Source: an uncultured Chloroflexia bacterium (lineage in GTDB: Bacteria > Chloroflexota > Limnocylindria > Limnocylindrales > CSP1-4). From it: a stretch of 64,000 nucleotides of DNA. This document shows, piece by piece, positions 17,842-39,055 of this stretch; the first letter of the stretch is position 1; the number at the start of each line of letters is the position of its first letter. The stretch lies in assembly GCA_963766735.1 (NCBI GenBank), contig CAVYBU010000019.1, positions 1-64,000 on the forward strand. The letters are read 5' to 3'. The translations under genes were made by a program, and so were the position numbers. The notes beneath the pieces are model-generated. The model was not told the DNA's origin, did no database searches, and worked only from the letters and a program-made list of their open reading frames with translations.

Positions 17842-17850
17842 CCTGCCCGG
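17835..17850. other. Junction between two unrelated genomic segments (probable chimera/mis-assembly)
   Basis: gpmI (-) and a GT-C gene (+) are both truncated here; GC step; diderm markers left, monoderm markers right. Confidence 0.85.
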
Positions 17851-18757
17851 CCAGGCGATCTCGAACGCGCTGTCGGTCACGGGCTTCGACATCTTCGCCT
17901 GGAACGACCCGCCCACCCTGTCCCGCTACCTGGCGGTGGGCCCGGCCCGCCTGCTGGAGATGCGCGTGGAGGGGCTGGGGCACAACATCGGCAACGTCCT
18001 GCTGTTCCTGGGGATCCCGGTCTCCGTGATCGGCCTGCTGGCGCTGCCGTGGCAGGCGCGGGACCGGGCGCTGCGTCCGGTGGTCCTGGTGGGCCTGGCG
18101 ACCTTCCTGGTCACCAGCCTCCTGTTCCCCGTCGCCACCACGTGGGGCACGTTCCTCCACGCGGCCGCCCCGATCCACGTGCTGCTGATCATCTCGGCGC
18201 TGGGGGCGCTGGACGCCGGCCTCGCGCGGCTGGGGCGACGGCTGGGCTGGACGCGACCGGTGGCCTGGCTGGGAGCACTCCTGACCGTGTTCGCGTCCTT
18301 CCTGTTCTCGGCGGCGCTGCTGCCCGCCTTCACGTGCGGCGGCGCAGGCGCCACGGCGCGAACCTACGCCGTGCTCGCCCGGCAGATGGCCGCGATCGGC
18401 GCGCCGCTGGACGGTTCCGCACCCGTGATCCACGACTTCCCGATCTGGCTGGCGGAGACGGCCCGGGTCCCGGTGCTCGCGCTCCCGGACGAGACCCCGG
18501 CGGACGTCCTGGACCTGGCCACGGATCCCCGGTTCGGTGCCCGGTGGCTCATCGTGGCCAAGCCCGACCACGGCGCCTGGCCGGCGATCCTCGACGGGTC
18601 GGAGCCGATGGCCAGGTGCTTCCGGGAGGTCCGGCTGCCCGTCCCGGACGACCCGGCGGACGCGAAGGCCATCGAGGGCGTGCGGGTCTTCCGCATCGGC
18701 TGCGACGGCCTGGCCACCGGATCCGAGGCAGTCGGCGCGGCGCTGCGCTCGCCGTAG
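17843..18757 (+). CDS. C-terminal part of a polytopic membrane protein, probable GT-C (ArnT/PMT-like) glycosyltransferase, 5'-truncated
   Basis: LPGQAISNALSVTGFDIFAWNDPPT..., several TM helices and a soluble C-terminal domain; no start codon or RBS after the junction. Confidence 0.55.
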   Translation: MPGQAISNALSVTGFDIFAWNDPPTLSRYLAVGPARLLEMRVEGLGHNIGNVLLFLGIPVSVIGLLALPWQARDRALRPVVLVGLATFLVTSLLFPVATTWGTFLHAAAPIHVLLIISALGALDAGLARLGRRLGWTRPVAWLGALLTVFASFLFSAALLPAFTCGGAGATARTYAVLARQMAAIGAPLDGSAPVIHDFPIWLAETARVPVLALPDETPADVLDLATDPRFGARWLIVAKPDHGAWPAILDGSEPMARCFREVRLPVPDDPADAKAIEGVRVFRIGCDGLATGSEAVGAALRSP

Positions 18758-18783: not shown

Positions 18784-19882
18784 ATGGATGGCCCCCGGAA
18801 CGACGCGTCGAACACCCGGTTCGACAAGCTGCACGCCGAGGCGGCGGAGGCACTGACCTACGCCGCGAACACGCTGCGCGCCGTGCGGGACCGCTACCGG
18901 CAAGCGTACCTGGAGGACCTCGCCCGCTGGGAGGCCCTGGCGGACGAGCTCGGCGCGCTTGAACACGGAGACGACGGTCGCCAGGATCCGGCCGACCCTT
19001 CCAGCGACGGGAATGCGGCCACTGGCGGCGGAGGCCGGCGCGGCAGACCGGCGGCTGCGCATGGTCCGGGGCGAGGTGGACCGCTCCCGGAAGGACCTTG
19101 CCGGCCACGAGGGCGAGCTGAGCCGGCTGGAGCTGGCGATCCGCAACCTCGAGAGCACGTGGCTGTTCCTGGAGCGCGGGGACGCCTCGCTGATCACGGA
19201 TCCGGCCCTGCCGGCCCTGCCCGCGGAACTCCGGATGCGGATCGTGGAGGCCCAGGAGGCCGAACGGGCGCGCCTGGCCCAGGAGGTCCACGACGGGCCG
19301 GCCCAGGCGCTCTCGAGCGCGATCTTCCAGGTGGATTTCATCGAGCGGATCTTCGAAACGGACAGGCCGATGGCCCGCCAGGAGCTGCGGTTCCTGAGGG
19401 ATCTGCTCCGCCGGGAGCTGGGTGACGTGCGCAGCTTCATCGGCCATCTGCGCCCACCCGTGCTCGAGGAGCTGGGCCTGGACGGGTCCATCATGGACAC
19501 GGTGGCCACGCAGGCCTCACTCTCCGGGCTGCACATCGCGGCCGACCTGACTGCGCCCGCCGGCAGCCTGCCGGAGCCCGCCCAGACGGTCGTGCTGCGC
19601 GTGGTGCAGGAAGCGCTCCAGAATGTGCGCAAGCACGCGGCTGCCGCGAACGTGGTGGTCACGACGGGGCTGGACGATGGACAATGGGTGCTGGAGGTCC
19701 GGGACGATGGTCGCGGCTTCGACACCGGAGCGGTGGCGGCCCGTGGCCGCCGCAACTTCGGCCTCCAGTTCATGCGGGAGCGGGCCGAGCTGATCGGTGC
19801 GCGGTTCGAAGTGCGGTCGCGGACCGATGCCGGCACGGTGGTCCGGCTGGCGATCCCGGTGACGCAAAAGGAGAGCGGATGA
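18784..19882 (+). CDS. DegS-like soluble sensor histidine kinase (HisKA_3 + HATPase_c; frameshift near 19020)
   Basis: N-terminal coiled coil with no TM. H-box QEVHDGPAQAL, N-box QEALQNVRKHA, G1 DDGRGF, G2 FGLQFMRERAEL. Confidence 0.88.
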
Positions 19883-20619
19883 CCGAGTACGAGGGGCCTG
19901 AGCGCCGTCGATCCGGCCAGGAGCGGCGGACCGCTTATGAGCAGGTACAGATCCTGATCGTGGACGACCACGCGCTGTTCCGCGTGGGCATCCGCCAGAT
20001 CCTGGAGCAGGAGCCCGACTTCGAGGTCGTCGCCGAGGCGGACGACGCGCGGACGGCCATCGACGCCGCGTTCGCCACCAACCCGGACATCATCCTGATG
20101 GACCTCTCGCTGCCCGCGCCCGGCGGCATCGAGACCACGCAGCGTGTCAAGCGGGAGCTCCCCGCGGCCGCCATCGTGGTCCTGGCCCACGAGGAGGACG
20201 AGGATGCCCTGTTCGAATCCATCAAGGCCGGGGCGGCCGCGTTCATCCTCAAGGACATCGCCCCGGAAGACCTGGTGATGGTCATCCGCCGCGTGGTGGC
20301 GGGCGAGTACCTGATCAACGACAAGGTCTTCAGCAAGCCGGCCGTCGCCTCCCGCGTGCTCAAGGAGTTCCGCGAGCTGGCGGTCTACGGCCAGGAGGCC
20401 GCCCCCATCTTCGCGCCGCTCTCGCCGCGCGAGGTGGAGATCCTGGACAACATCGCCCAGGGCATGACCAACAAGCAGGTCGCCTACGCGCTCTCGATCA
20501 GCGAGCAGACGGTCAAGAACCACATGAGCTCCATCCTGCGCAAGCTCTCCGTCAACGACCGGACCCAGGCCGTGGTGTACGCGATGCGCCAGGGCTGGAT
20601 CCGGATGCCGGAGGACTGA
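19879..20619 (+). CDS. DegU/NarL-family response regulator (REC + LuxR HTH)
   Basis: ILIVDDHALFRVG, DIILMDL, GAAAFILKD, LSPREVEIL...GMTNKQVAYALSISEQTVKNHMSSILRKL; ATGA-coupled to the kinase. Confidence 0.93.
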   Translation: MTEYEGPERRRSGQERRTAYEQVQILIVDDHALFRVGIRQILEQEPDFEVVAEADDARTAIDAAFATNPDIILMDLSLPAPGGIETTQRVKRELPAAAIVVLAHEEDEDALFESIKAGAAAFILKDIAPEDLVMVIRRVVAGEYLINDKVFSKPAVASRVLKEFRELAVYGQEAAPIFAPLSPREVEILDNIAQGMTNKQVAYALSISEQTVKNHMSSILRKLSVNDRTQAVVYAMRQGWIRMPED

Positions 20620-20654
20620 TCCGCTCGCTGCGTCCCGGGGGGCTCCACCGCCCG

Positions 20655-21828
20655 ATGACCACGCCCGAAACAGCGCCCGACGGCCCGGGGTCCGCCCTCG
20701 TGGCCCAGCTGCACGCGGACCTGGCCACGCTCGACCGCGAGCTGGCCGAGATCGACATGCTCGTCGGGCAGGCCAGGACGGAGGCCGCCCGGCACGAGCA
20801 GAAGCGGGCGCAGGCCGCCGAGCGGCTCGGGCCGGCACGCCGGACGAGCCGGCCGATCCGAGGACGCCTCGGACGCCTGGGCGAGCCTGGTGACGATGAC
20901 CCGGCGCGCCGTGCTGATGGAGGCGCAGGTCGACCTGCTCGACGGCAAGCGGAAGGCCCTGGCGCGACACCGGGCGGCGATCGCGGACGTGCTGGCGGCG
21001 ATCGAGCAGGTGCCGGGGGACCCGCGCCGAGGCGCGGGCGGCGGACGCCGAGGAGGCCCTGTCCCCGTCGCTCTCCCGGGTGGTCCTCACCGCCCAGGAG
21101 GACCTCCGCCGGGAGATCGCTCGGGCGATGCACGACGGACCGGCGCAGTCCCTCACCAACATCGTGCTCCAGGCGCAGATCGTGGAGCGGCTCCTGGAGC
21201 GGGACCCGTCCCGGGCCAGGAGCGAGCTGCAGCTGCTGGTGTCGATGGTCCAGCAGACGCTGGACGCCACCAAGAGCTTCATCTTCGACGTCCGGCCGAT
21301 GGTGCTGGACGACCTGGGCCTGGTGCCCACGCTCCGGCGCGCCGCCCGGGACCGCGGGCAGCGGGCGCACGTCCCCGTGGAGTTCGAGTCCCTGGGCCAG
21401 GACCGGCGCCTGCCCATGGAGGTGGAGAGCGCGGTCTTCCGGATCCTGGACGAGGCGCTGGCCGCCTACCTGTCGCTCACCCCGGAGCGGATCGCTCCTG
21501 CGCCTGGACTGGACCGACGAGCTGGAGGCCCGGCTCACCGCGCATCACGCAGCCGTGGACCCCACCGGTGAGGCGCTGCCGGCCGTGCCGACCGGCGATG
21601 TCCCGGACGCCATCAAGCAGATGATCCAGGACCGCCACGACGCACGCGCGGCCGCGGACGCCGCGGCCGAGGAGGCAGCCATCATGGTCCTGCCGGCTCC
21701 CGTGCGCCGCGACATCGGCGAGCGCGCCGGCATCCATCGGGGCGACGGTGGAGGTGCTGGCGGGCGGCGGCGAGATCCGGCTGGTGGTCCCGCTGCCGCC
21801 GGCGGGAGAGGCGGGCGCCGAGGCATGA
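20655..21828 (+). CDS. Second DegS-like protein with intact H-box but degenerate ATPase domain (several frameshifts)
   Basis: MHDGPAQSLTN and RPMVLDDLGLVPTLRR present; N-box reads DEALAAY and no DxGxG is seen. Confidence 0.75.
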
Positions 21829-21989
21829 CGGAGCGGTCCGGGACCGGCGAGCCGGGACCCGGGATCCTGGAGACGTCTCTCGTGCTGGGGCTGGCGGTGC
21901 TGCTGGCGGCCGCGATCCTCGTGTTCTTCGGCGGGCCGTTCGCGGACCTGATGGGCATCGTGGTGGACGCCGCCCACGGCGGACGCTGA
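21825..21989 (+). CDS. Divergent Flp-like pilin / small membrane protein (54 aa)
   Basis: MTERSGTGEPG|PGILETSLVLGLAVLLAAAILVFFGG: Gly followed by Glu at +5 and a hydrophobic helix; ATGA overlap with the upstream gene. Confidence 0.55.
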   Translation: MTERSGTGEPGPGILETSLVLGLAVLLAAAILVFFGGPFADLMGIVVDAAHGGR

Positions 21990-22113
21990 GCCCGGGCGAA
22001 CCGGTCCCGTGGGATAGGACCATCGTCCCATTGGCGATGACGAGGCGAACCTCTACTTTGCAGGTCGGCCCCCTTGCATTCTGGGCCGCGGCATTATCTC
22101 GGGAGGTTCGTCC

Positions 22114-22284
22114 ATGGCCCTCATCAACGCGCTGCTCGCCTCGTTCCGCACGGACGAGGAGGGCCAGGGTCTCGCGGAGTACGCGCTGATCCTCGCGCTC
22201 ATCGCCATCGTGGCCATCGTCGCCCTGATCTTCCTGGGCGGCCAGGTCTCGACGATCCTGTCGACCGTCGGCAACTCCGTCTAG
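22114..22284 (+). CDS. flp: Flp-family type IV (Tad) pilin, copy 1
   Basis: GGAGG RBS; MALINALLASFRTDEEG|QGLAEYALILALIAIVAIVALIFLGGQVSTILSTVGNSV* (below ORF-track cutoff). Confidence 0.93.
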   Translation: MALINALLASFRTDEEGQGLAEYALILALIAIVAIVALIFLGGQVSTILSTVGNSV

Positions 22285-22303
22285 CGCGTCCGCTCTCCAG
22301 CGG

Positions 22304-22336
22304 ACGAAGGCCGCCGGCTCGTCCGGCGGCCTTCGT
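22304..22336 (+). terminator. Hairpin terminator after flp copy 1
   Basis: ACGAAGGCCGCCGG-ctcgt-CCGGCGGCCTTCGT perfect 14-bp stem. Confidence 0.7.
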
Positions 22337-22422
22337 GCGTCCGGGCAACGGTTCTTCGGCACGGCGCCCGGCTTCCACGCTGCCGGGTGACCGTCGGCCT
22401 GCCCAGGTGCGGTCCAGTGGAG

Positions 22423-22452
22423 TTGACACCCGCCGAGCCGTCGGCATACCGT
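22423..22452 (+). promoter_or_regulatory. Sigma70-type promoter of flp copy 2
   Basis: TTGACA-N18-TACCGT, followed by AAAGGAGGT RBS. Confidence 0.5.
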
Positions 22453-22505
22453 CCGCATCGCCGCGCTCATTCGGCGGACTCTGACGGAAAGGAGGTACCA
22501 CCCAC

Positions 22506-22678
22506 ATGACGCTTATCAACGCACTCATCTCGCGCTTCTCGAGCGACGAGGAGGGCCAGGGTCTCGCGGAGTACGCGCTGATCCTCGCGCTCATCGCCAT
22601 CGTCGCGATCGTCGCCCTGATCTTCCTGGGCGGCCAGGTCTCGCACGATCCTGTCGACCGTCGGCAACTCCGATCTAG
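22506..22678 (+). CDS. flp: Flp-family pilin, copy 2 (two 1-nt insertions near the 3' end)
   Basis: MTLINALISRFSSDEEG|QGLAEYALILALIAIVAIVALIFLGGQVS..; nucleotide core nearly identical to copy 1. Confidence 0.9.
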
Positions 22679-22906
22679 CTCCGACTCGCCAATCGTCGCC
22701 GGCCGCCGGCTGCCGCTACCTGGCAGCCGGCGTCGCTGTTCTCCGGCGGTTCCCCGGCGCACCGGGCGGACCATCGGAGGGGTTGCGCATCGGCGAGCGG
22801 GCGTTACCGTATGCAGATGTCCGGGGGCGGTACGCGAGATCTCGCGCATCGCTGCATCAGGCAACCCGGACCGGGCATCTTGCCCGAGAAGGAGGTGATC
22901 GCAGCC

Positions 22907-23087
22907 GTGCTGACCAAGTTCACGGCCCTGGCGGGTTCGATCGTCCGTCGCGACGACGAGGACGGTCAGGGACTCGCGGAGTACGCACTCATCCTGGCGC
23001 TCATCGCCATCGTCGCCATCGTCGCCCTGATCTTCCTGGGCAGCCAGATCAGCGACAAGCTCAGCGTCAGTCGGCGACGCGCTCTAG
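22907..23087 (+). CDS. flp: Flp-family pilin, copy 3 (1-nt frameshift near the 3' end)
   Basis: AGAAGGAGGT RBS; MLTKFTALAGSIVRRDDEDG|QGLAEYALILALIAIVAIVALIFLGSQISDKLSV/VGDAL*. Confidence 0.9.
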
Positions 23088-23109
23088 CGGCGTCCGGCAC
23101 TCATTCGGC

Positions 23110-23138
23110 AAGCCCGCCGGGTCATCCCGGCGGGCTTT
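23110..23138 (+). terminator. Hairpin terminator after flp copy 3
   Basis: AAGCCCGCCGGG-tcat-CCCGGCGGGCTTT. Confidence 0.7.
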
Positions 23139-23336
23139 CCATTTCCGCGGGGCATGCCGGGCGAGCTGACGGCATGCGGCATCCCGGCACGATGGCGTCC
23201 CTTGCAGGGCACCTTACGATGAACAGCGCATCCGCCCATTTCCTCCCAAGGGTCCTAGCCCTATTGGTTGGTCGTCGGGCGATTTCGCGGTGCTAGAGTG
23301 TTGCCACCTGTCACACGACCTCGGGGAGATACATCT

Positions 23337-24261
23337 TTGAAACGCTCGAATCGGTTGGTCCTGCTAATCGGGATCTTCCTCGCAATCGTTGCCTTCGTCC
23401 TCGTCTTCATGACGCTGCAAGGCGGTGGATCCACCACCGGCAACCAGAGCGATCCCGGCCTCAGGGAGGTCAACGTCGTCATCGCGGCGAAGGACATCCC
23501 GCTCGGCGCGAAGTTCACGTCGGACTCGGTGACGACCAAGGTCTTCAAGGTCGCCGACAAGCCCACGGACAGCTACGGCGACCCGGCGCAGGTCGTCGGC
23601 CAGACGGCGCGCCAGCCCGTCACGAACGGCCAGCTCATCACGAGCACGATCCTCTACGGCTCCAGCCAGGGCATCACCAGCCTCGACGGTGCCGGCGGGC
23701 AAGGTCGGCATCGCGGTCCAGGTGGACCAGGTGTCCGGCGTGGGCACGCTGACCAAGGCCGGCGACAACGTGGACATGCTGGTGGCCCTCACCGGGGACA
23801 AGTTCCCGGTGGTGACCGTCAACCCGGACGACCAGTCCATCACCGTCGTCTCCGGCATCAACTCCACCAGCGTCAAGCTCCTGCTCCAGGGCGCCCAGGT
23901 GATCGGGACGCTGCTGCCGCCGCCGCCGGCGGACACCGGCAACAACACCGAGGCGGAGCCCGGCACGGATGCCGGCGCACCGACGAACCTCAACGGCCAG
24001 CAGCAGATCGTGATCCTCGCGGTCGACGCCCAGCAGGCCGAGATCGTCAAGTACGCCCAGCTCGACGGCAGCATCTCGCTGGTGCTGCGCAGCGCGGACG
24101 ACTTCCGCGACCCGGTGACCGGTGAGCCGCTGGACCCGGAGCTGATCGTGCCGGTCCAGACGACGGGCGTCACGCTCCGGTCCCTCGTGGACAACAACGG
24201 CGTGCTGGTGCCGGAGCTGGTCGAGGCGATCCTCCCGGCGCAGGCGACGCCGGCGCCGTAA
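23337..24261 (+). CDS. cpaB: Flp pilus assembly protein CpaB/RcpC (frameshift near 23688)
   Basis: N-terminal TM, SAF domain VVIAAKDIPLG...VVGQTARQPVTNGQLIT, then PAGKVGIAVQVDQVSGVG...GDNVDML. Confidence 0.88.
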
Positions 24262-24391
24262 CGCCGTGAGGGCCGATGGCCCGCACGCCGCGCGAGCCCG
24301 GGACGGGCCGGTTGACCCCGGCTCATCCCGGTCGCACCAATCCCGCACACCGCTGACACCAACCCAGGCCCCGAGGTCGATCCACCACCAT

Positions 24392-25663
24392 ATGGCAGAC
24401 CAGATCCGCGTTCTCATCGTCGACGACATCCCGGAGACCCGCGATCACCTCGCGAAGCTGCTCGGCTTCGAGACGGACATCGAGGTCGTCGGGAGCGGCG
24501 GCGTCCGGGCGCGAGGCACTCGAGATGGCCGCGCGGCTGACGCCCGACGTCGTCCTCATGGACATCAACATGCCGGACATGGACGGCATCGCCGCCACGG
24601 AGCACCTGGCGGCCGAGGTCCCGACCACGGCCGTCGTGATGATGTCCGTGCAGGGCGAGGCGGACTACCTCCGCCGGTCCATGCTGGCCGGCGCGCGCGA
24701 GTTCCTGGTCAAGCCCTTCTCCTCCGACGAGCTGACGTCGTCCATCCGGCAGGTCTACACCCGCGAGCGCGACAAGCTCTCCCGGATCGCCCTCCAGCCC
24801 GCCGCGCCGGCGACGCGCCGGCGGCCATGGCCGCCACGCCCGCAGGCCCGCGACGGACAGCGAGCCCGGCCGCGTGGTGGCGGTGTTCGGGCCCAAGGGC
24901 GGCGTCGGCCGGACGACCCTCGCGGTCAACCTGGCGGTCGCCGCAGCCACCGAGCTCGGCCAGCGCACGTGCCTCGTGGATGCCTCGTTCCAGTTCGGCG
25001 ACGTGGGCGTCCTGCTCAACCTCAACCCCAAGAACAAGTCCGTCGCGGACCTCATCCCGGAGCTGGAGAGCGGCGAGACCGAGTCGCTCGACACGTTCCT
25101 CATCAACCACTCCGCCGGCATCCGGGTGCTGCTGGCCCCGCCGTCACCCGAGATGGCCGAGCTCATCACGCCGCATGGCGCCAAGCGCATGATCGAGGCG
25201 CTGCGCGTGTCCCACGACCTGGTGGTCGTGGACTGCATGTCGTCCTTCAACGACACCACGCTCGCCATCCTGGATCTCGCCGACACCGTCCTCACGATGC
25301 TGTCGCTCGAGATCACGTCGATCAAGAACATCCGCCTCTTCCTGGAGGTGGCCGAGCAGCTCGGGCTACGGGTCGGACAAGGTCCGGCTGGTGCTGAACC
25401 GCGCCGACTCGTCGCTGGGCATCCGCGTCGCGGACGTGGAGCACTCGATCGGGCGGCGCGTGGATCACACGATCGTCTCCGACGGTCGGAGCGTCGTGTA
25501 CGCGCTCAACCGGGGAGTGCCGTTCTTCCTGTCAAACCGCGAGGCGCAGGTGTCCCAGGACGTCCTGCGGCTCGCGTCCGCGGTGGCGGGTTCCCGCACC
25601 GCGGAGGCCGGCGAGCCGGCCAAGAAGTCCGCGCAGAAGAAGTCGCTGTTCGCATGGCGATGA
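24392..25663 (+). CDS. cpaE: CpaE/TadZ pilus assembly protein (REC + MinD/ParA-like ATPase; frameshifts)
   Basis: RVLIVDDIPETRDHL, DVVLMDINMPDMDG, GAREFLVKPF, GPKGGVGRTTLAVNLA, VDASFQFGDV, LNRADS, ALNRGVPF. Confidence 0.88.
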
Positions 25664-25710
25664 CGAGGCAGCGAGAGCAAGGGCCGTTCACGGCCAAAGG
25701 GGTGTAGACG

Positions 25711-27122
25711 ATGTCTCTCCTCAAGCGCATCGAGAGCGCCCGTCCCGGCGCCGGGACAGGACCCGAAGGCGGTTCCAACGTCCCCGCGACCGCGCCGGGC
25801 GGGCTCCGGCGGCCAGCCGCCGGCCTCACGGCGGCGGCCGGCTGATGTCCCAGGCCCCGGTCCGCGAGTCGTTCCGGGACGTGAAGTTCCGGATCCAGAA
25901 CCGCGTCATCCAGGACCTGGACCCCAAGCTGGACCTGTCCAACCAGGTCGAGGTCCGCCGGCAGATCGAGGAGATCTTCGGCAAGGTCATCGACGAGGAG
26001 GGCCTCGCCCTCACCCGCGCCGAGCGGGTGCGGATGCTGGAGCAGATCACCGACGAGATCATCGGCCTCGGCCCGCTGGAGCCCCTGCTCCGCGACGAGA
26101 GCATCTCCGAGGTCATGGTCAACGGCCCGCGCCAGGTCTACATCGAGCGCACCGGCCAGCTGGAGCTGACCAACGTCGTCTTCCAGAACGACGACCACGT
26201 GATGCGCATCATCGATCGGATCATCGCCCCGATCGGCCGCCGCGTGGACGAGTCCAGCCCGATGGTGGACGCCCGCCTCACCGACGGCTCGCGCGTCAAC
26301 GCGATCATCCCGCCGCTGTCGCTGGTCGGCCCGGTCGTCACCATCCGGAAGTTCTCGGCCAGCCCGCTCACGGTGGACGACCTGATCCGGTTCGGCACCG
26401 CCACCCCGGAGATGTTCGAGTTCCTGCGCGCGTCCGTCGAGGCCCGCCTCAACGTCTTCGTGTCCGGCGGCACCGGCTCCGGCAAGACGACGACGCTCAA
26501 CGTCCTGTCGTCGTTCATCCCCAACGACGAGCGCATCGTGACGATCGAGGACGCGGCCGAGCTCCAGCTCCGCCAGGAGCACGTGGTGACGCTGGAGTCC
26601 CGCCCGCCCAACATCGAGGGCAAGGGCGCGATCCCGATCCGCGAGCTGGTCCGCAACTCGCTGCGGATGCGGCCCGACCGGATCATCGTCGGCGAGTGCC
26701 GCGGCGGCGAGGCGCTGGACATGCTCCAGGCCATGAACACGGGCCACGACGGCTCGATGTCCACCGGCCACGCCAACAGCCCCCGCGACATGCTGTCCCG
26801 CCTGGAGACGATGGTGCTGATGGCGGGCGTGGACCTGCCGGTGCGCGCCATCCGGGAGCAGATCGCCTCCGCGGTGGACGTCATCGTCCACCAGGCCCGC
26901 CTCAAGGACGGGACCCGCCGGATCACGAACATCACCGAGGTCCAGGGCATGGAGGGTGACGTCATCGTGATGCAGGACGTGTTCGTGTTCGAGCAGACCG
27001 GCGTCGTCGAGGGCAAGATCCAGGGCCGCCTGAAGCCGACCGGCATCCGGCCCAAGTTCGTCGAGAAGTTCGAGGTCCAGGGCATCCACCTGCCGCCGGG
27101 CCTCTTCGGCTTCAGCTACTAG
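25711..27122 (+). CDS. cpaF: Tad pilus assembly ATPase CpaF/TadA (frameshift near 25800-25845)
   Basis: MSLLKRIE start; GLGPLEPLL, SGGTGSGKTT, TIEDAAEL, LRMRPDRIIVGECRG, MNTGHDGSMSTGHAN. Confidence 0.95.
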
Positions 27123-27140
27123 GAAGGCGGGGAGCCCGCC

Positions 27141-28156
27141 ATGGACAACATGACGATCGTCATCGCCGGCATCGCCGCCCTCGCGATCCTCCTGATCGCG
27201 ATCGGGATCGCCATGTCCGGCAGCGGCTCCGGGGTCAACGCCCGCCTCGAGCGCTACGCCTCGGGCAAGCCCGAGAAGGTGGAGACACCGGCGAATGGCC
27301 AGGGCGGCATCGCCGCGGCCATGGCGTCCAGCGCCACCATGACCCAGCTCAACAAGGTGGTGGAGCAGCGCGACTTCGGCGCCAACCTGGCGCGCGAGAT
27401 CGCGCGGGCGGACCTGCGCTCAAGCCCAGCGAGTACCTGATGATCTGGGCCGGCTCCACCGTGGGCGTGCCGCTCCTGATGTTCGTGTTCTCGGTCGCGC
27501 TGCCGACCCTCGGCAACCCGATCATCCTCCTGGTGGGGCTCCTCGTCGGGTTCATGCTGCCGCGCTTCTGGCTGGGCCGCCGGAAGGGCGGGCGCCTCAG
27601 CACGTTCAACAAGCAGCTGCCGGACACGATCACGCTGATCGCCAACGCCCTGCGCGCGGGCTCCTCGTTCCTGCAGGCCATCGAGCTGGTGGTCCGCGAG
27701 TCGCAGCCGCCGATCTCCACGGAGTTCGGCCGCGTCATCCGGGAGGTCAACCTGGGCCTCTCCTTCGAGGTCGCCCTCGAGAACATGGTCCGGCGCGTCA
27801 GGTCCGACGACCTGGAGCTGATGGCCACCGCCATCTCGATCCAGCACACCGTCGGCGGCAACCTGGCCGAGATCCTGGACTCGATCGCGTACACGATCCG
27901 CGAGCGCGTCCGCATCCAGGGCGAGATCCGGACCCTCACCGCGCAGCAGCGCCTGTCCGGCTACGTGGTCGGGTTCCTGCCGATCGGCCTGGCCGGGTTC
28001 CTGTTCATCGCGGCCCCCAGGTTCATGGCGCCGATGTTCGACGACCGGATCTCGATCATCGGGCTGCCGGGCGGGGTGATCATCCTGATGCTGGGCGGCT
28101 TCTCGATGTTCATGGGCTTCATGTTCATCCGCAAAATCGTCGACATCGAGGTCTAG
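27141..28156 (+). CDS. tadB: Tad pilus platform protein TadB (T2SSF domain; frameshift near 27420)
   Basis: FNKQLPDTITLIANALRAGSSFLQA, GGNLAEILDSIAYTIRER, LTAQQRLSG. Confidence 0.9.
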
Positions 28157-28159
28157 CCC

Positions 28160-29092
28160 ATGGAGCCCCTGTCCCTGATCGTGGCGGCCATCGCAGTCGG
28201 CGCCATCCTGATGATCTTCGTCGGCCTGGCCGGCCGCGCCCCGGTGGACCCGGTCCAGGCCCGCCTGACCCAGCTGGGCACCGTCCAGGCGGCCAGACCT
28301 GGAGGAGCTGGAGCTCCAGCAGCCGCTCTTCGACCGCACCATCCGGCCGCTGGCGGACCGGCTGTCCGGGTCGGTCGGCGGGTCACGAGCACCTCCTTCT
28401 CCGCGACAACCGAGAAGCGCCTGGCGCTGGCGGGCAACCCCGGCGACCTGCGCATGGCCGACTGGCTGGGCATCAAGGCCGTCGGCGCGATCGTCGGCGC
28501 CGGCCTGTTCGTGCTGCTGTTCGTGGTCCCCGCCGTGATCAAGGTGTCGTTCCCGATCAACCTCGCGATGATCGCGGTCGGCGTGATGTTCGGCTACACC
28601 GTCCCCGAGTTCTGGCTGGGCGGGCGCATCAAGAAGCGCCAGAAGGCGATCCTGCTCCAGATCCCGGACGCCCTGGACCTGCTCACGATCTCCGTCCGCG
28701 CGGGCCTCGGCTTCGACGGCGCGCTGGGCAAGGTGGTCGAGAAGCTCAAGGGGCCCCTCACCGACGAGTTCCGGCGGGCGCTGGCCGAGATCCGCGTGGG
28801 CAAGGCCCGGCGGGACGCGCTGCGGGACATCGTCGGGCGCACCGAGGTGCCGGCCCTCACCAACTTCATCGGGGCGATCATCCAGGCCGAGCAGCTGGGC
28901 GTGTCGATCAGCAAGGTGCTCCAGGTCCAGTCCGAGCAGCTGCGGATCGAGCGCCGGCAGCGCGCCGAGGAGATGGCGGCCAAGGCGCCGATCAAGATGC
29001 TGTTCCCGCTGGTCGGGTGCATCTTCCCGTCGCTGTTCATCGTCATCCTGGGCCCGGCGATCATCCTGATCATGATCAACCTCACGGTCTGA
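28160..29092 (+). CDS. tadC: Tad pilus platform protein TadC (T2SSF domain)
   Basis: IPDALDLLTISVRAGLGFDGAL, IQAEQLGVSI, RAEEMAAKAPIKMLFPLVGCIFPSLF. Confidence 0.92.
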   Translation: MEPLSLIVAAIAVGAILMIFVGLAGRAPVDPVQARLTQLGTVQAARPGGAGAPAAALRPHHPAAGGPAVRVGRRVTSTSFSATTEKRLALAGNPGDLRMADWLGIKAVGAIVGAGLFVLLFVVPAVIKVSFPINLAMIAVGVMFGYTVPEFWLGGRIKKRQKAILLQIPDALDLLTISVRAGLGFDGALGKVVEKLKGPLTDEFRRALAEIRVGKARRDALRDIVGRTEVPALTNFIGAIIQAEQLGVSISKVLQVQSEQLRIERRQRAEEMAAKAPIKMLFPLVGCIFPSLFIVILGPAIILIMINLTV

Positions 29093-29100
29093 CCGGGGCG

Positions 29101-29545
29101 GTGGGGTCCGGCGGGTCGAGGCGGCAGGGTCCGAGGCGGGCCGGGCCGGGGGTTCGCGGCCGGGAGTTCGCGGCCGGGGGTCGCGCGCAACCTCGAGCGG
29201 GATGCCGTCCTGGCCGAGCGCCTGGAGACGGCCGCATCGCTCTGGGGCAAGTTCATGGGCCTGATGGGGCGCCCGTCGCTGCCGGCCGGCGAGGGGCTGT
29301 GGCTGCCGGCCAGCAACGGGATCCACATGATGTTCATGCGCTTCCCGATCGACGCGGTGTTCGTCTCCCGCCCGGACGCGGAGGGCGTGCGCCGCGTGCG
29401 ATCGGTGCATCGCGGGTTGCGGCGGTGGACGGGGGTCGTGTGGCTGGTCCGGGGCGCGGACGGCGTGCTGGAGCTGCCGGTCGGGACGATCGACGCGACT
29501 GGGACCGCGGTGGGCGACCGGGTGGAGATCCGCGAGACCGCGTAG
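29101..29545 (+). CDS. DUF192-domain protein (start uncertain)
   Basis: VLAERLETAASLWGKFMGLMGRPSLPAGEGLWL...IHMMFMRFPIDAVFV...VLELPVG. Confidence 0.8.
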
Positions 29546-29678
29546 GGGTTGCGGGCGCGCGGGGCGTTTCGGCGTGGGCGCGGGGCGGCGCGGGGGCCGG
29601 GCGCGCGCGCGGCCGGGCGCGGGACCCGGGCGCAACATGGTGAGCCGCACATAAGCGGCTCGCGCCATCGTTCGGGTC

Positions 29679-30353
29679 GTGATCCGCGGATTGAACCCCA
29701 TCGGCCGCCTCCTGGACCTCGCCCTGCCCGCCGCCTGCGCCGGCTGTGGCGTGGAGGGCGAGCCTCTCTGCGCCACCTGCCGCCCCGCGCTGGACGCGCG
29801 GCTCACGCTGCCGGCGGGAACGCCTCTGGGGCTCGCTGACGGTCCCCCCGAGCCGCTGCTCCAGCTGGACTGGTGCGCCCCGTTCGCGGGCGTGACGCGG
29901 CGCGCCCTGCACGCGCTCAAGTACACGGGCGAACGCCGGCTGGCCGTCCCGCTGGGCGCTGCCGTCGCGGCCCGATGGCGCGCGGCTGGGGCGGGCGGCG
30001 ACCTCTTCGTCCCGGTGCCGGTCCACGCGTCGCGGCGCCGGGAGCGAGGGTTCGACCAGGCGGAGCTCATCGCCGCGGCGGCATCGGACGCCCTCGGTCT
30101 CCCGTGGCGGCCGGCTCTCGTCCGCGCCCGGGCGACAGCGGCGCAGTACCGACTGGATCGCGGCCACCGGGCGAGGAACGTGCACGCCGCGTTCGAGGTT
30201 CGCAACGGATCGACGGCCGCGGTCGCGGGGCGCTGGGTGGTGCTGGTGGACGATGTCGTCACGACGGGCGCGACGCTGGCCGCCTGCGCGGAGGCGCTCC
30301 TGGCATCCGGGGCGACCGCCGTCAGCGCCGTGACCGTTGCCCGGGAACGATAG
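29679..30353 (+). CDS. comF: ComF/ComFC-family protein (zinc ribbon + phosphoribosyltransferase-like)
   Basis: CAGC..LCATC, LKY, VPVPVH..RRRERGFDQAEL, RARNVHAAF, VLVDDVVTTGATL. Confidence 0.92.
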   Translation: MIRGLNPIGRLLDLALPAACAGCGVEGEPLCATCRPALDARLTLPAGTPLGLADGPPEPLLQLDWCAPFAGVTRRALHALKYTGERRLAVPLGAAVAARWRAAGAGGDLFVPVPVHASRRRERGFDQAELIAAAASDALGLPWRPALVRARATAAQYRLDRGHRARNVHAAFEVRNGSTAAVAGRWVVLVDDVVTTGATLAACAEALLASGATAVSAVTVARER

Positions 30354-30398
30354 GACGATGGCGCCACCTGGCCCTGTGGGCCGGCTCCCGCACCCGTC

Positions 30399-30460
30399 TA
30401 TACTCGAACCCCGGGTGGGGCCGATATCCCCGGGTGGGGCCGCCATCGCCGGCCCACCCG
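30399..30460 (+). promoter_or_regulatory. hpf -10 box (TATACT) and leader with a tandem 15-nt direct repeat
   Basis: TATACT at 30399; CCCCGGGTGGGGCCG at 30409 and 30428. Confidence 0.45.
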
Positions 30461-30500
30461 CCCCCGCAGCCAGGCGCACCGCAGCGCCGGGAGGTCAACC

Positions 30501-31094
30501 GTGAGGACGATCGTCAGGGGCAAGAACATCGAGGTTCCGGACCGGGTCCGGCGGTACACCGAACGCAAGTTCGTCCGCCTCGAGCGCTTCCTTGATGACC
30601 GCACGGACGCCGTCGTCGAGCTCTCCAACGAGGCACATCGGAGTGCCGCCGACGCGCACATCGTGGACGTCACGCTCATCATCGACGGGACGACGCTGCG
30701 CAGCCGCGCGACCGGAAGCTCGTACCAGGCCGCCCTCGACGAGGTCGTGGACAAGGTCGAGCGCCAGGCGATCGACCACAAGGAGAAGCCCCGCGTCCGT
30801 TCCCGCCCGGAGCTGGAGAAGGCGCTCCTCCGCAAGATCGCGGACGGGACGGCCGACGCCACCAGCGATCGGCAGATCGTCAAGACCAAGCGCTTCGCCA
30901 TCGAACCGATGTTCGAGGAGGACGCGGTCACGGCGATGGAGGAGCTGGGCCACGACTTCTACGTCTTCGTGAACGCCGAGAACGAGCACGTGGCGGTCCT
31001 CTACCGCCGCAAGGACGGGCGTTACGGCCTGATCGAGCCGGTGGTGGGCGGCGAGTACACCCAGCGCAAGCCGTCCAAGGACGCTCGCCGGTAG
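30501..31094 (+). CDS. hpf: Long ribosome hibernation promoting factor (HPF/RaiA/YvyD)
   Basis: MRTIVRGKNIEV..., YQAALDEVVDKVERQ, IVKTKRF..PM..EDAVTAMEELGHDFYVF, VLYRRKDGRYGLIEP. Confidence 0.95.
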   Translation: MRTIVRGKNIEVPDRVRRYTERKFVRLERFLDDRTDAVVELSNEAHRSAADAHIVDVTLIIDGTTLRSRATGSSYQAALDEVVDKVERQAIDHKEKPRVRSRPELEKALLRKIADGTADATSDRQIVKTKRFAIEPMFEEDAVTAMEELGHDFYVFVNAENEHVAVLYRRKDGRYGLIEPVVGGEYTQRKPSKDARR

Positions 31095-36643: not shown

Positions 36644-37642
36644 CTAGATCTGGGAGACCAGGGACTTCTTGAAGAAGTCGAAGTGCTCGAGCGCCAGCCC
36701 CGTCCCCAGGGCGACGCAGTTGAGCGAGTTCTCGGCGACGTGGCAGGGGACGCCGGTGACCTGGGTCAGCAGCTTGTCGATGTTGCGCAGCAGCGAGCCG
36801 CCGCCCGACATGACCATGCCCTTGTCGATGATGTCCGAGGACAGCTCCGGCGGCGTCTGCTCGAGGACCATGCGCACCGCCGCCACCAGCTGCTGGAGCG
36901 GGATCTCGATGGCCTCCATGACCTCGGAGGACGTGATCGGGATCGTGCGCGGCAGGCCCGCGATCAGGTCGCGGCCGCGGACCTCCATCGTCAGCTCGCG
37001 CTCGAGCGGCAGGGCGGTCCCGATCTGGATCTTGACCTCCTCCGCCGTCCGCTCGCCGACCATCAGGTTGTACTTCTTGCGGATGTAGGAGGTGATCGCC
37101 TCGTCGAACTTGTTGCCGCCGACGCGGAGGCTGTTGAACACGACGATGCCGCCGAGCGAGATGACCGCGATCTCGGACGTGCCGCCGCCGATGTCGATGA
37201 TCATGTTCCCGGACGGCCCGCTGATCGGCACGTTGGCGCCGATCGCCGCCGCCAGCGGCTCCTCGATCAGGAACGCGTCCTTGGCGCCGGCCTTGAGGGC
37301 CGCGTCGCGGACGGCGCGCTTCTCGACCGAGGTCACGCCGGCCGGGACGCTGATCATCACCTCGGGCCGGGAGAAGCCGATGCGGCCCTTGGTCGCCTTG
37401 CCGATGAAGAAGCGGAGCATGGCCTCCGTGATGACGTAGTCGGCGATGACGCCGTCCTTCATCGGGCGGATGGCCTGGATGTTGCCGGGCGTCCGGCCGA
37501 TCATCTCGCGGGCTTCCTCGCCCACGGCGACGATCCGGTTGTCCTCGCCGACCGCGACGACGGAGGGCTCCGTGATGACGATGCCCTTGCCCTTGACATA
37601 GACGATGACGTTCGCGGTTCCGAGGTCGATACCGATCTTCAT
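36644..37642 (-). CDS. mreB: Rod shape-determining protein MreB/Mbl
   Basis: [60 protein letters not shown]. Confidence 0.97.
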
Positions 37643-37723
37643 GACGGCGGGAATGCTACTCCTGAAGCGGGGCCCGGCCCGTGGAGGCCGGCAGGATGGA
37701 TGAGGGGTTGGGGCGACTGGGCC

Positions 37724-39055
37724 TCAGGCCCGATCGGCCGAACGGGTGATGCTCGCCCCGAGCTGCTGGAACTTGCGGTCGATGTTCTCATACCCGCGGT
37801 GAACGTGGTGTGCGCCGTGGATCAGGGACGCGCCGTCCGCCGCGAGGGCGGCCAGGATGAGCGACGCGCCGGCGCGCAGGTCGCTGATGGACGCCTCGGC
37901 GCCGTGGAGGCGGACCGGGCCGTGGATCGACGCGTGGTGGGCGTCCTCGATATCGATCCGTGCACCCAGCTTGCGCAGCTCGGCCAGCCACTCGATGCGA
38001 TCCTCGAAGATCGCCTCGTGGACGCGCGAGGTGCCGGTGGCCTGGGTCAGGAGCACGCAGGTGGGCGGCTGGACGTCCGTGGCCAGGCCCGGGTACGGCG
38101 CGGTCTCGATGTCGCAGGCGCGCAGGTCGCCGGGCCGCAGGTCCGTGGCGTCGATGTCGATGGTGTGTGCCCCGCAGGCGACCGGCACGCCGATCCGGCC
38201 GAAGGCCTCGATCAGGCCCTGGACGTGGCTGCAGGCTGCGTTCTCCAGCGTCAGCCGGCCGCCGGTGACCGCCGCCGCCACGAGGAAGGTCCCCGTCTCG
38301 ATCCGGTCCGGCAGCACCGAGTGGTTGGCACCGCGGAGCCGCTGGCGGCCGTGGACCTCGATGACGTCCGGGGCCGTCCGCTTGACATCGGCCCCCATCT
38401 CGCGCAGGAAGACGATCAGGTCGTCGACCTCCGGCTCCTGCGCCGCCGGCCGGATGACCGTGTCGCCCTCGGCCAGGGTGGCCGCCAGCATCGCGTTCTC
38501 GGTGCCCATCACGGTCACCTGGGGGAACGTCACCTCGCCGCCACGGAGCCGGCCCGGCGCCTGGGCGTAGTAGTAGCCGTTGCGGTACTCGATCTCCGCG
38601 CCCAGCGCGCGCATCGCGTCCACGTGGAGGTTGACCGGGCGCCGGCCGATCCGGTCCCCGCCCGGGTTGCTGATGATGACGCGCCCGAAGCGGGCGAGGA
38701 GCGGGCCCAGCAGGATGAACGAGGCGCGCATCTTGGCGGCGGCCTCGAGCGGGATGAACAGCCAGTCCACGTCGCCGGCGGCGATCTCGTAGACGCCGGG
38801 GGCCGGGTGATCCACCACGACGCCCAGGTCCGTGAGGACCTCCGCCATGACGCGGACGTCCTCGATCTCGGGCACGTTCTCGAAGCGGCAGCGCTCGCCC
38901 GTCAGGACGGCGGCCGCAAGCAGCTTGAGGGCGGCATTCTTGGCGCCGCTGACCGTGACCGTGCCCCGGAGCGGGCGGCCACCCTCGATCCGGAAGGCTT
39001 CCGGGGGTGCCGCTTCCGGGTGGTACTCCCAGTGGAACGGCCGGGCGTCAGCCAT
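37724..39055 (-). CDS. murA: UDP-N-acetylglucosamine 1-carboxyvinyltransferase
   Basis: SGAKNAAL, MRASF, PGGDRIGRRPVNLH (Asp at the fosfomycin-target Cys position), TVMGTEN, EPEV, PDRIETGT, YPGLATD, DLRAGA, RGYE. Confidence 0.96.
   Translation of the reverse strand: MADARPFHWEYHPEAAPPEAFRIEGGRPLRGTVTVSGAKNAALKLLAAAVLTGERCRFENVPEIEDVRVMAEVLTDLGVVVDHPAPGVYEIAAGDVDWLFIPLEAAAKMRASFILLGPLLARFGRVIISNPGGDRIGRRPVNLHVDAMRALGAEIEYRNGYYYAQAPGRLRGGEVTFPQVTVMGTENAMLAATLAEGDTVIRPAAQEPEVDDLIVFLREMGADVKRTAPDVIEVHGRQRLRGANHSVLPDRIETGTFLVAAAVTGGRLTLENAACSHVQGLIEAFGRIGVPVACGAHTIDIDATDLRPGDLRACDIETAPYPGLATDVQPPTCVLLTQATGTSRVHEAIFEDRIEWLAELRKLGARIDIEDAHHASIHGPVRLHGAEASISDLRAGASLILAALAADGASLIHGAHHVHRGYENIDRKFQQLGASITRSADRA

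Follow-up and report, generated by a model that had tools for sequence, protein, structure and literature searches.

A conserved predicted operator-promoter before the Flp pilin genes of a Chloroflexota Tad locus that carries a DegS/DegU-type module

We have analysed a 64,000-nt stretch of DNA, hereafter the window, from an uncultured Chloroflexia bacterium (positions 1 to 64,000 of contig CAVYBU010000019.1 of assembly GCA_963766735.1, which we designate G000), and in particular a 12.3-kb locus at 18784-31094 in which genes for a regulatory module of the DegS/DegU type precede genes for a Tad pilus, a DUF192 protein, ComF and Hpf. Among named organisms, the nearest relatives of the kinase belong to Chloroflexota; the class is probably Limnocylindria. 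An earlier note, made from the letters of this DNA, had proposed that the module controls the pilus. Our principal observation, a conserved 16-bp palindrome directly abutting a predicted promoter in front of the first pilin gene, supplies evidence in cis for Deg control of the Tad pilin gene, and we consider it probable that a soluble DegS/DegU-type phosphorelay activates flp through this palindrome to build a Tad pilus used mainly for adhesion or aggregation.

Organization of the locus

The named genes are all on the + strand, in the order in which they had been listed previously. The first, K1 (18784-19882), encodes a soluble HisKA_3 + HATPase_c kinase with intact H, N, G1 and G2 boxes (VHDGPAQ, N-box Asn, DDGRG and FGL). 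Its stop codon is overlapped (ATGA) by the gene for the locus regulator, RR (19879-20619), a NarL/DegU-like response regulator with a REC domain and a GerE/LuxR helix-turn-helix (HTH) domain, which adjoins a DegS-type kinase. K2 (20655-21828), a paralogue of K1, encodes a DegS-orthologous pseudokinase that matches HisKA_3 only and keeps a coiled-coil N-terminus and, of the catalytic boxes, only the H box, with the His of MHDGPAQ. The solubility of the kinases was judged from their sequences and from a structural model of K2.

Four pilin genes had been proposed to follow. Three of these are canonical Flp genes (GQGLAEY), namely flp1 (22114-22284), which encodes a 56-aa prepilin, flp2 (22506-22678) and flp3 (22907-23087), each with a G+C-rich hairpin to its 3' side (a strong one at 22285-22338 for flp1). 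The fourth proved to be a degenerate pilin-like gene (21825-21989) that overlaps the K2 stop, reads GPGILET against the canonical GQGLAEY, has no Pfam match and lies upstream of the flp promoter. The assembly genes are cpaB/rcpC (23337-24261; SAF + RcpC), cpaE/tadZ (24392-25663; N-terminal receiver and MinD/ParA-type ATPase), the assembly ATPase gene cpaF/tadA (25711-27122; T2SSE), and tadB (27141-28156) and tadC (28160-29092), both T2SSF. These are followed by the DUF192 protein gene (29180-29545; start uncertain, first ATG at 29255), comF (29679-30353; ComFC-type zinc ribbon and PRT fold) and a long-form hpf (30501-31094; S30AE + S30AE_C). Neither comFA nor degV is present in the locus.

The locus is evidently not one operon, because flp1 has a predicted promoter of its own and the hairpins follow the flp genes. 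There was no Rfam match to a structured RNA at E<=0.1 in the segment 17800-34000; a plain sigma-70 consensus scan returned 0 promoters, and so missed the flp promoter; and terminator-like sites numbered 3, compared with 2.7 expected.

The operator-promoter element before flp

Alignment of the DNA preceding flp1 revealed a conserved block at 22015-22030 (+ strand), the imperfect palindrome TAGGACCATCGTCCCA, which we predict to be an RR operator. It is immediately followed by a predicted sigma-70-type promoter (22031-22059) consisting of TTGGCG (22031-36), a spacer of 17 nt, and TACTTT (22054-59), from which transcription is predicted to start ~7 nt downstream of 22059. In general form, the operator reads TAG(G/T)AC-N4-NTCCTA and abuts a TTG-N20-TAnnnT promoter. 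We observed the operator pattern in 52/95 flp upstream regions across classes, and in 47/58 first flp copies, compared with a mean of 0.08 and a maximum of 2 of 95 after shuffling; L158, L162 and the other G000 copy of the locus, on contig C29, were left out of this count as duplicates, and in none of our counts are related genomes independent of each other. The search pattern did not include the -10 element, which is separated from the -35 hexamer by exactly 17 nt in 49/52 regions, and at L162 each of four tandem flp copies has its own operator site.

A strict operator-promoter pattern was found in 63/251 genomes (17 with a reversed control), that is, in 49/130 RR-positive genomes versus 14/121 RR-negative genomes at an arbitrary RR-positive threshold of E 1e-75. 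The operator persists in family f3, where K2 has been lost and K1-RR kept. Within G000, the flp1 site is the top operator match; a strong site that lacks the TTG is flanked by a tadE gene and a small divergent gene (C6:30869), and a weak site precedes the tadE gene on contig C7. Sites touching the -35 element are typical of activators that contact sigma. Activation is accordingly the likely use of the flp operator, as judged from its position, with repression as a possibility.

We also examined 40 further sites, hand-picked from 132 listed and mostly chosen to avoid those known before degS-linked flp genes, and scanned 28 downstream proteins. Unlinked flp genes followed 2/40 of these sites and tadE operons another 2/40; others preceded genes for sortase, SH3-NlpC/P60, lytic-transglycosylase, subtilase, glycosyltransferase, PilZ, GGDEF, DUF4388, DUF1385 (2) and receiver proteins, and some were clearly due to chance, for example one inside a coding sequence. 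In two families (L309, L326), it is a DUF1385 gene that follows the operator-promoter, which makes DUF1385 a candidate regulon member. At L301 (genome G036), a gene for a large secreted protein with an SpvB-type domain lies just downstream of an operator match. A small RR-negative genome (G083, contig C1) has four near-identical matches to the pattern, suggestive of a repeat element or of another regulator.

The kinase pair and its regulator

The N-box Asn, the G1 glycines and G2 are missing from K2, which has retained MHDGPAQ and carries an insert of ~35 aa in the ATP-lid region. Among 7 relatives, conservation of this insert is 0.88 and that of the DHp domain is 0.90, compared with 0.50 for the linker. 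In the K2 model (mean predicted local distance difference test score (pLDDT) 80, predicted template modelling score 0.43), the ATPase fold is retained and the insert is a helix of 24 residues lying on it. These observations show that the His helix and sensor coiled coil of K2 are kept under selection and that its ATP site has been lost.

The family to which the 2 kinases belong was indicated by several comparisons. PF05384, the N-terminal sensor domain of DegS, gave no match at E<=1 in 3 K1 and 3 K2 relatives, and was found in 0/13 genomes of the family, with none in G000; above its cut-off, it is present in a kinase of 45/251 phylum genomes, these being K2 orthologues from other classes. Beginning at its N-terminus, K2 (and not K1) aligns to the PF05384 kinases over ~260 residues, a mixture-model tree places it within their group (92/90), and the best full-length matches of the PF05384 K2 orthologues in a plasmid collection were three Bacillota DegS proteins. 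The view that the kinases are of the DegS family is therefore upheld, with the amendment that the DegS orthologue is the dead downstream K2 and not K1.

K1 constitutes a separate old clade (96/96; 81/89 in a 36-row tree), the branching of which was unsettled under the mixture model. The 36-row tree (LG+G4) united K1, K2 and Bacillota DegS together with two intended outgroups (96/89), and K2 with DegS (94/85). The strict clades in this tree gave p=0.19 and 0.39 in the approximately unbiased (AU) test, and the order of the K1-K2-Bacillota DegS backbone was settled neither under the mixture model nor in a 67-row tree. In profile comparisons, no alignment was obtained between Bacillota DegS and the N-terminus of K2, and K1 aligned from DegS residue 104 onward; a reciprocal search of the plasmid collection with K1 returned nothing at E 1e-20. 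The PDB holds no solved DegS, the nearest structures by sequence and fold being DesK and VraS.

For RR, orthology to DegU was neither supported nor rejected. The Chloroflexota RRs form one clade (997/1000; 100/99 support), and a joint clade with Bacillota DegU had a bootstrap of 1-9/1000 and AU p=0.25 (0.249). DegU was not among the 15 top matches listed when RR was compared with the plasmid collection, a search that was uninformative.

Where both kinases are present (27 loci), K1 is intact and K2 damaged in 13, the reverse holds in 11, both are intact in 3, and both are dead in 0. Exactly one kinase is thus intact in 24/27 pairs, and which one it is flips by lineage, as does the lesion, which may affect the ATP box, the His or the His+1 position. 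Ten rows had been dropped from this count: L158, L097 and L129 as duplicates, L011, L012, L017, L019, L084 and L256 as frameshifted or gapped, and L100, the regulator of which is not orthologous. K2 has been lost outright in family f3, and many Anaerolineae loci lack K1. Co-folding of K1 with K2 gave a score of 0.59 (best control, 0.00), with contact agreement of at least 73% and a partner pLDDT of at least 76. This mark was reached by 116/157 solved and 2/215 mismatched pairs; at <=0.60, where 18 solved pairs and both mismatches fall, passes are more often wrong than right unless the pairing is likely beforehand. Co-folding weakly supports a K1-K2 pairing, and the score may reflect likeness to solved kinase homodimers.

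Pilus machinery and the question of competence

A Flp prepilin with a G/xxxxEY site, TadA, TadB, TadC, RcpC and TadZ are all present, with the Flp_Fap and TIGR03819 scores below the curated cut-offs and those for CpaB, T2SSE and T2SSF above them. In G000, tadB/tadC and canonical flp genes occur only at the window locus and its C29 copy. Counting these 2 copies as one, the tadB/tadC pair is the sole one in 4/5 genomes of the genus; G006 has a second pair. There is one A24 prepilin peptidase gene (C30:179719), and a motif scan located TadE/G-type motifs at C6:28-35 kb and C7:275 kb. Secretin, noted earlier as missing from the locus, was found in 0/5 genus genomes (92-94% complete), G000 included. 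Flagella were rejected as an alternative appendage on the finding of flagellin in 0/5 of the same genomes. An orphan cpaF paralogue (C17:113273-115138, - strand; 67% identity, open reading frame (ORF) of ~620 aa), similar to ones in many genus genomes, was considered as a second Tad machine and rejected, as there is no tadB/C beside it. With CpaF as query, no other ATPase of the type IV pilus type was found in G000. The locus is a Tad system of the monoderm type and the only complete pilus machine of the genome. Twelve RNA runs contained 0.05-0.13 of the words, with all contigs from relatives, and were not used for expression or habitat.

If the pilus were built mainly for DNA uptake, the Deg-type relay would govern a competence system that delivers DNA to ComEA/ComEC and ComF, which we regard as rather unlikely as an account of the locus. 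The genes expected elsewhere in the genome if the system served competence are there: comEA-comEC, dprA and the single A24 gene were found in 5/5 genus genomes, as was comF, with a ComF score below the TIGR00201 cut-off. The presence of comEC and dprA says little, however, because both also match in 10/14 control genomes, and the only comFA candidate in the genome was unconvincing (best match 24%, E 5e-6, with one query). More suggestive is a REC-CpaE paralogue gene that lies 108 bp before a gene we take, from its sequence, to be comM-like, followed by dprA and topA (G000 C2:286786-291010; L247-L250), an arrangement present in 5/5 genus genomes. A second REC-CpaE paralogue is encoded at C2:260727-262100, and others on C7 and C30.

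Linkage can be read in both directions. RR directly precedes comF in 3/20 RR-anchored loci, and comF follows Tad genes in 6 families and lies 4.7 kb from cpaF in G254, where degS-flp is relocated; yet comF is unlinked from Tad in 3/4 tested genomes having both, and comF-hpf occurs without Tad in 11 families. Transformation of Micrococcus luteus requires tad genes (PMC4322843). As against this precedent, we found no operator before comEA, comM-dprA or comF in G000, and 0/40 of the sampled sites precede comEA, comEC, dprA, comM or comF, and direct control of com genes by RR seems improbable. DNA uptake via this pilus stays a possibility, since it is the sole pilus of the genome and comEA, comEC, dprA and comF are present; the chance that the pilus is needed for DNA uptake in at least some lineages is, we estimate, a little short of even.

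The reader of the palindrome

The footprinted B. subtilis DegU site at Pfla/che, CTAGG-N8-CCTAG, has the same TAGG-N8-CCTA geometry as the flp operator (10.1101/2023.08.04.552067). This geometry marks a NarL-type reader without proving which one, because OsdR/DevR sites resemble it too. We assign a small probability to the view that the palindrome, although real, serves another protein (a NarL regulator like DevR/OsdR most likely, or else LexA) and that the Deg module acts on other targets. The genus version of the palindrome, TAGGACGATCGTCCCA, is much like OsdR sites such as GGGGACGATCGTCCCC (PMC5069765), but the phylum consensus, TAGTAC..TCCTA, is unlike the GGG..CCC type of OsdR, and the site travels with the RR clade and stays beside the RR gene across classes. 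As to LexA, its box in the same genomes is GAAC-N4-GTTC (before lexA, uvrA, uvrB and recA), from which 51/52 flp sites differ at >=2 of 8 positions, and we rejected it as the identity of the site. On balance, RR very probably reads the flp operator.

Several observations count against the proposal that RR activates flp through the palindrome to make an adhesive pilus. The search pattern was drawn from the same sequences that it counts. Only 21/52 sites are within one mismatch of TAGG-N8-CCTA, and OsdR/DevR sites of NarL type have a similar geometry (PMC5069765). G000 encodes several other NarL regulators, and 14 RR-negative genomes have the strict pattern, points that also speak for another reader. 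Among RR-anchored loci from other families, the strict pattern occurred in 0/20, and of the 11 that lead to pilus genes only 4 had an operator with a relaxed score of >=9; within the family of the window, other genera have a weak operator or lack one. The adhesive role, finally, is likely but is borrowed from relatives.

Conservation of the gene block

The earlier note had placed weight on conservation of the linkage, and a synteny survey anchored in turn on cpaF, degS, hpf and RR showed that the block recurs far beyond this genome, whole or split, across much of Chloroflexota. With cpaF as anchor, the order K1-RR-K2-flp(2-4)-cpaB-cpaE-cpaF-tadB-tadC-DUF192 was present in 11/11 full-span genus loci, and comF-hpf followed DUF192 in 10/11. 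The degS-anchored set comprised 80 named loci, of which 79 could be scored: RR lies immediately upstream of degS in 53/75 loci with flank, flp, cpaB or cpaE lies <=2 kb downstream in 49/71, and the full tad + comF run is completed within <=10 kb in 11/41, some others having TadE/G and large genes inserted. Around hpf (40 loci, 29 families), Tad is upstream in 14 loci from 6 families, with four loci short. Of the 20 RR-anchored loci, 11 lead to flp or cpaB and 3 to comF, 4 have K1 only, and the other 2 are bare or gave no information. Separate pieces, namely K1-RR, K2-flp, the Tad motor and comF, make up the block in families f13 and f30, and the degS-flp link is kept where the Tad motor and comF lie elsewhere.

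Some variants of the block are of interest in themselves. Family f3 (L259-L263), which has no K2, carries a second receiver gene, a classical HisKA kinase gene and tadE-tadG as insertions between tadC and DUF192. Loci L275 and L279 (families f17 and f22) have a short second cpaF-like match between comF and hpf; at L016:808-3933, a gene for a 1041-aa Ig-domain surface protein follows hpf; and an HTH/endonuclease-like ORF is located between DUF192 and comF at L011:15147-15959.

These comparisons point to a block that is old and ancestral within much of Chloroflexota, with comF and hpf as old downstream neighbours of the Tad block. Adjacency of comF and hpf as such is generic, because 11 families have it without Tad. 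Bacillota-type degS loci have the order yigZ-degS-degU-degV-comFA-comFC-flgM, and Tad genes were beside degS in 0/80 metagenome loci, as far as the flanks within their sequence extend, and in none of 3 plasmid-collection records; this set comprises the closest relatives of three DegS queries, is mostly Bacilli-like and often short, and Clostridia may differ. It is plausible that Tad genes occupy the place of flagellar genes at one ancestral Terrabacteria locus, a comparison that rests on two phyla. That the genes are old neighbours only, with Tad placed by inheritance between degSU-like genes and comF-hpf, no regulatory tie among them and K2 a decaying duplicate, is very improbable: comF-hpf and degS-degU-comF adjacencies are indeed widespread and the block is split in several classes, but degS stays with flp when it splits, a conserved operator-promoter stands at the junction, and the DHp domain and insert of K2 are better conserved than its linker.

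A model for control of the pilus

In the mechanism we favour, activation of flp by the Deg-type relay, K1, whose catalytic motifs are intact, would autophosphorylate and phosphorylate RR, and K2 might tune K1 or RR as a dimer partner, phosphate sink or phosphatase. RNA polymerase would then be recruited by an RR dimer bound to TAG(G/T)AC-N4-NTCCTA beside the -35 element. The hairpins after each flp gene would hold pilin message far above assembly-gene message. From established Tad biology, the single A24 peptidase, encoded elsewhere, is expected to cut Flp, and CpaB, CpaE, CpaF, TadB and TadC to assemble it without a secretin, with minor pilins of the TadE/G type coming from other loci. DNA uptake, if any, would fall outside this operator as far as tested.

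A more far-reaching proposal is that the DegS/DegU appendage circuit predates the split of Bacillota and Chloroflexota, the same regulator, through the same TAGG-N8-CCTA site, controlling flagella in Bacillus and Tad pili in Chloroflexota, that the duplicated kinases of Chloroflexota form a heterodimer in which either copy may be the pseudokinase, and that the pilus is the missing DNA-uptake pilus of the phylum. We hold this to be doubtful.

Chloroflexota are abundant in soils, sediments and wastewater, and floc formation and gliding are attributed to their pili. We found no paper on control of these pili, and the operator, promoter and candidate regulator make the question testable in cultured strains. 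The DegU consensus is described as undetermined in the Bacillus paper (10.1101/2023.08.04.552067), and the flp site allows it to be viewed from outside that group. In the kinase pair, nature provides a series of pseudokinases that arose more than once, through different lesions. Should the pilus take up DNA, it would offer a way into the genetics of a phylum for which few tools exist.

Quality of the assembly and neighbouring genes

Indels were encountered in K1 (near 19021), K2 (several), flp2 (near 22644), flp3 (near 23066), cpaB (near 23684), cpaE (several), tadB (near 27419) and tadC (two, compensating, near 28297 and 28378). The second copy of the locus in the same assembly (C29:1-14870) is 92.9% identical over 14.9 kb and likely comes from a co-binned strain; it may inflate gene counts for G000. 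As K1, RR, K2, cpaB, cpaE, tadB and tadC of this copy all translate without stops, the frameshifts in the window are most likely long-read or assembly errors, and real gene decay was ruled out on the same seven genes.

The contig (C19) is chimeric at ~17,842, ~940 bp upstream of the locus, which is itself untouched. From position 1 to this junction, the G+C content is 61-65%, compared with 70-73%, the tetranucleotide distance is 2.1-2.3 against a 95th percentile of 1.21 for the genome, argS, secA and argJ are only 30-37% like the genome's own copies, and gpmI is cut. This foreign part, presumably Myxococcota-like, also carries fur, and findings in it belong to another organism. At the junction begins a 5'-truncated membrane-protein gene (17843-18757, + strand), which is longer and intact ahead of K1 in relatives. 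Segments C6:1-15000 and C4:~205000 of G000 also have a strongly deviant composition (tetranucleotide distance 6-7 and 3.6, respectively) and are possibly contamination or islands. Beyond the locus, genes that we take to be mreB and murA lie on the opposite strand (36644-39055, -); between these and the locus are an endonuclease IV-like gene and genes for what are presumably HTH, flippase-like membrane and PHP-domain proteins.

Comparison with known systems

The Bacillus deg locus, represented by degS-degU-degV-comFA-comFC-flgM-flgK in Priestia megaterium NZ_CP140268, resembles the locus described here in having a soluble HDGPAQ-type kinase and a NarL-type regulator ahead of comF and of a gene cluster for a surface appendage; in loci that lack flagella (L175, L240, L243), hpf follows comF, as it does here. 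It differs in that two kinase paralogues, one usually dead, flank the regulator in our locus, that the appendage is a Tad/Flp pilus and not a flagellum, and that comFA and degV are missing. In Bacillus, DegU activates an appendage promoter at a TAGG-N8-CCTA inverted repeat, to which our predicted operator corresponds in geometry; the Bacillus site is ~40 bp upstream and needs SwrA, whereas ours abuts the -35 element (10.1101/2023.08.04.552067).

Among Chloroflexota, a flp-cpaB-cpaE-cpaF-tadB-tadC cluster of Anaerolineae/Anaerolineales is highly transcribed and was read as adhesive (PMC4877987), and imaging has shown Tad pili in Chloroflexales and Litorilinea (PMC7332563; 10.1101/2025.08.19.671072). 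These systems share with ours the gene order and the lack of a secretin. The suggestion that such a system had not been described needs correction as regards the Tad cluster, which is in print for Anaerolineae, and stands as regards the regulator, kinase pair and operator, for which we found no account. The main text of PMC4877987, as available, does not mention comF, two-component systems or competence, that of 10.1101/2025.08.19.671072 does not mention DegS, comF or competence, and PMC7332563 does not mention competence; we saw no regulator or operator described in them. In a search of the literature on Chloroflexota Tad, DegS-DegU and DegU together with pilins, with most subscription journals outside its range, no title or opening of an abstract dealt with the regulator, kinase pair or operator. 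What is new here is the conserved operator-promoter before Chloroflexota flp.

The kinase pair may be compared with Caulobacter DivL and Pseudomonas RetS, degenerate histidine kinases that tune a partner kinase and keep the fold without autokinase function. Unlike these, the dead copy here is a tandem paralogue, and lineages differ both in which paralogue is affected and in what it has lost (His, His+1 or ATP box). PprAB of Pseudomonas aeruginosa, to our knowledge, has no soluble kinase pair of the DegS type. It is a two-component system whose regulon of Flp pili and adhesins confers an aggregative phenotype, in which the likeness to our locus lies, and it differs in being a diderm system in an unrelated locus context (PMC3510237). 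Like the Flp competence pilus of Micrococcus luteus, the present system is a Tad system without a secretin, with an unlinked peptidase and TadE/G, with comEA-comEC, and with no other pilus in the genome; the M. luteus system differs in that it lacks TadZ and needs two tad clusters, and in that transformation was demonstrated for it (PMC4322843).

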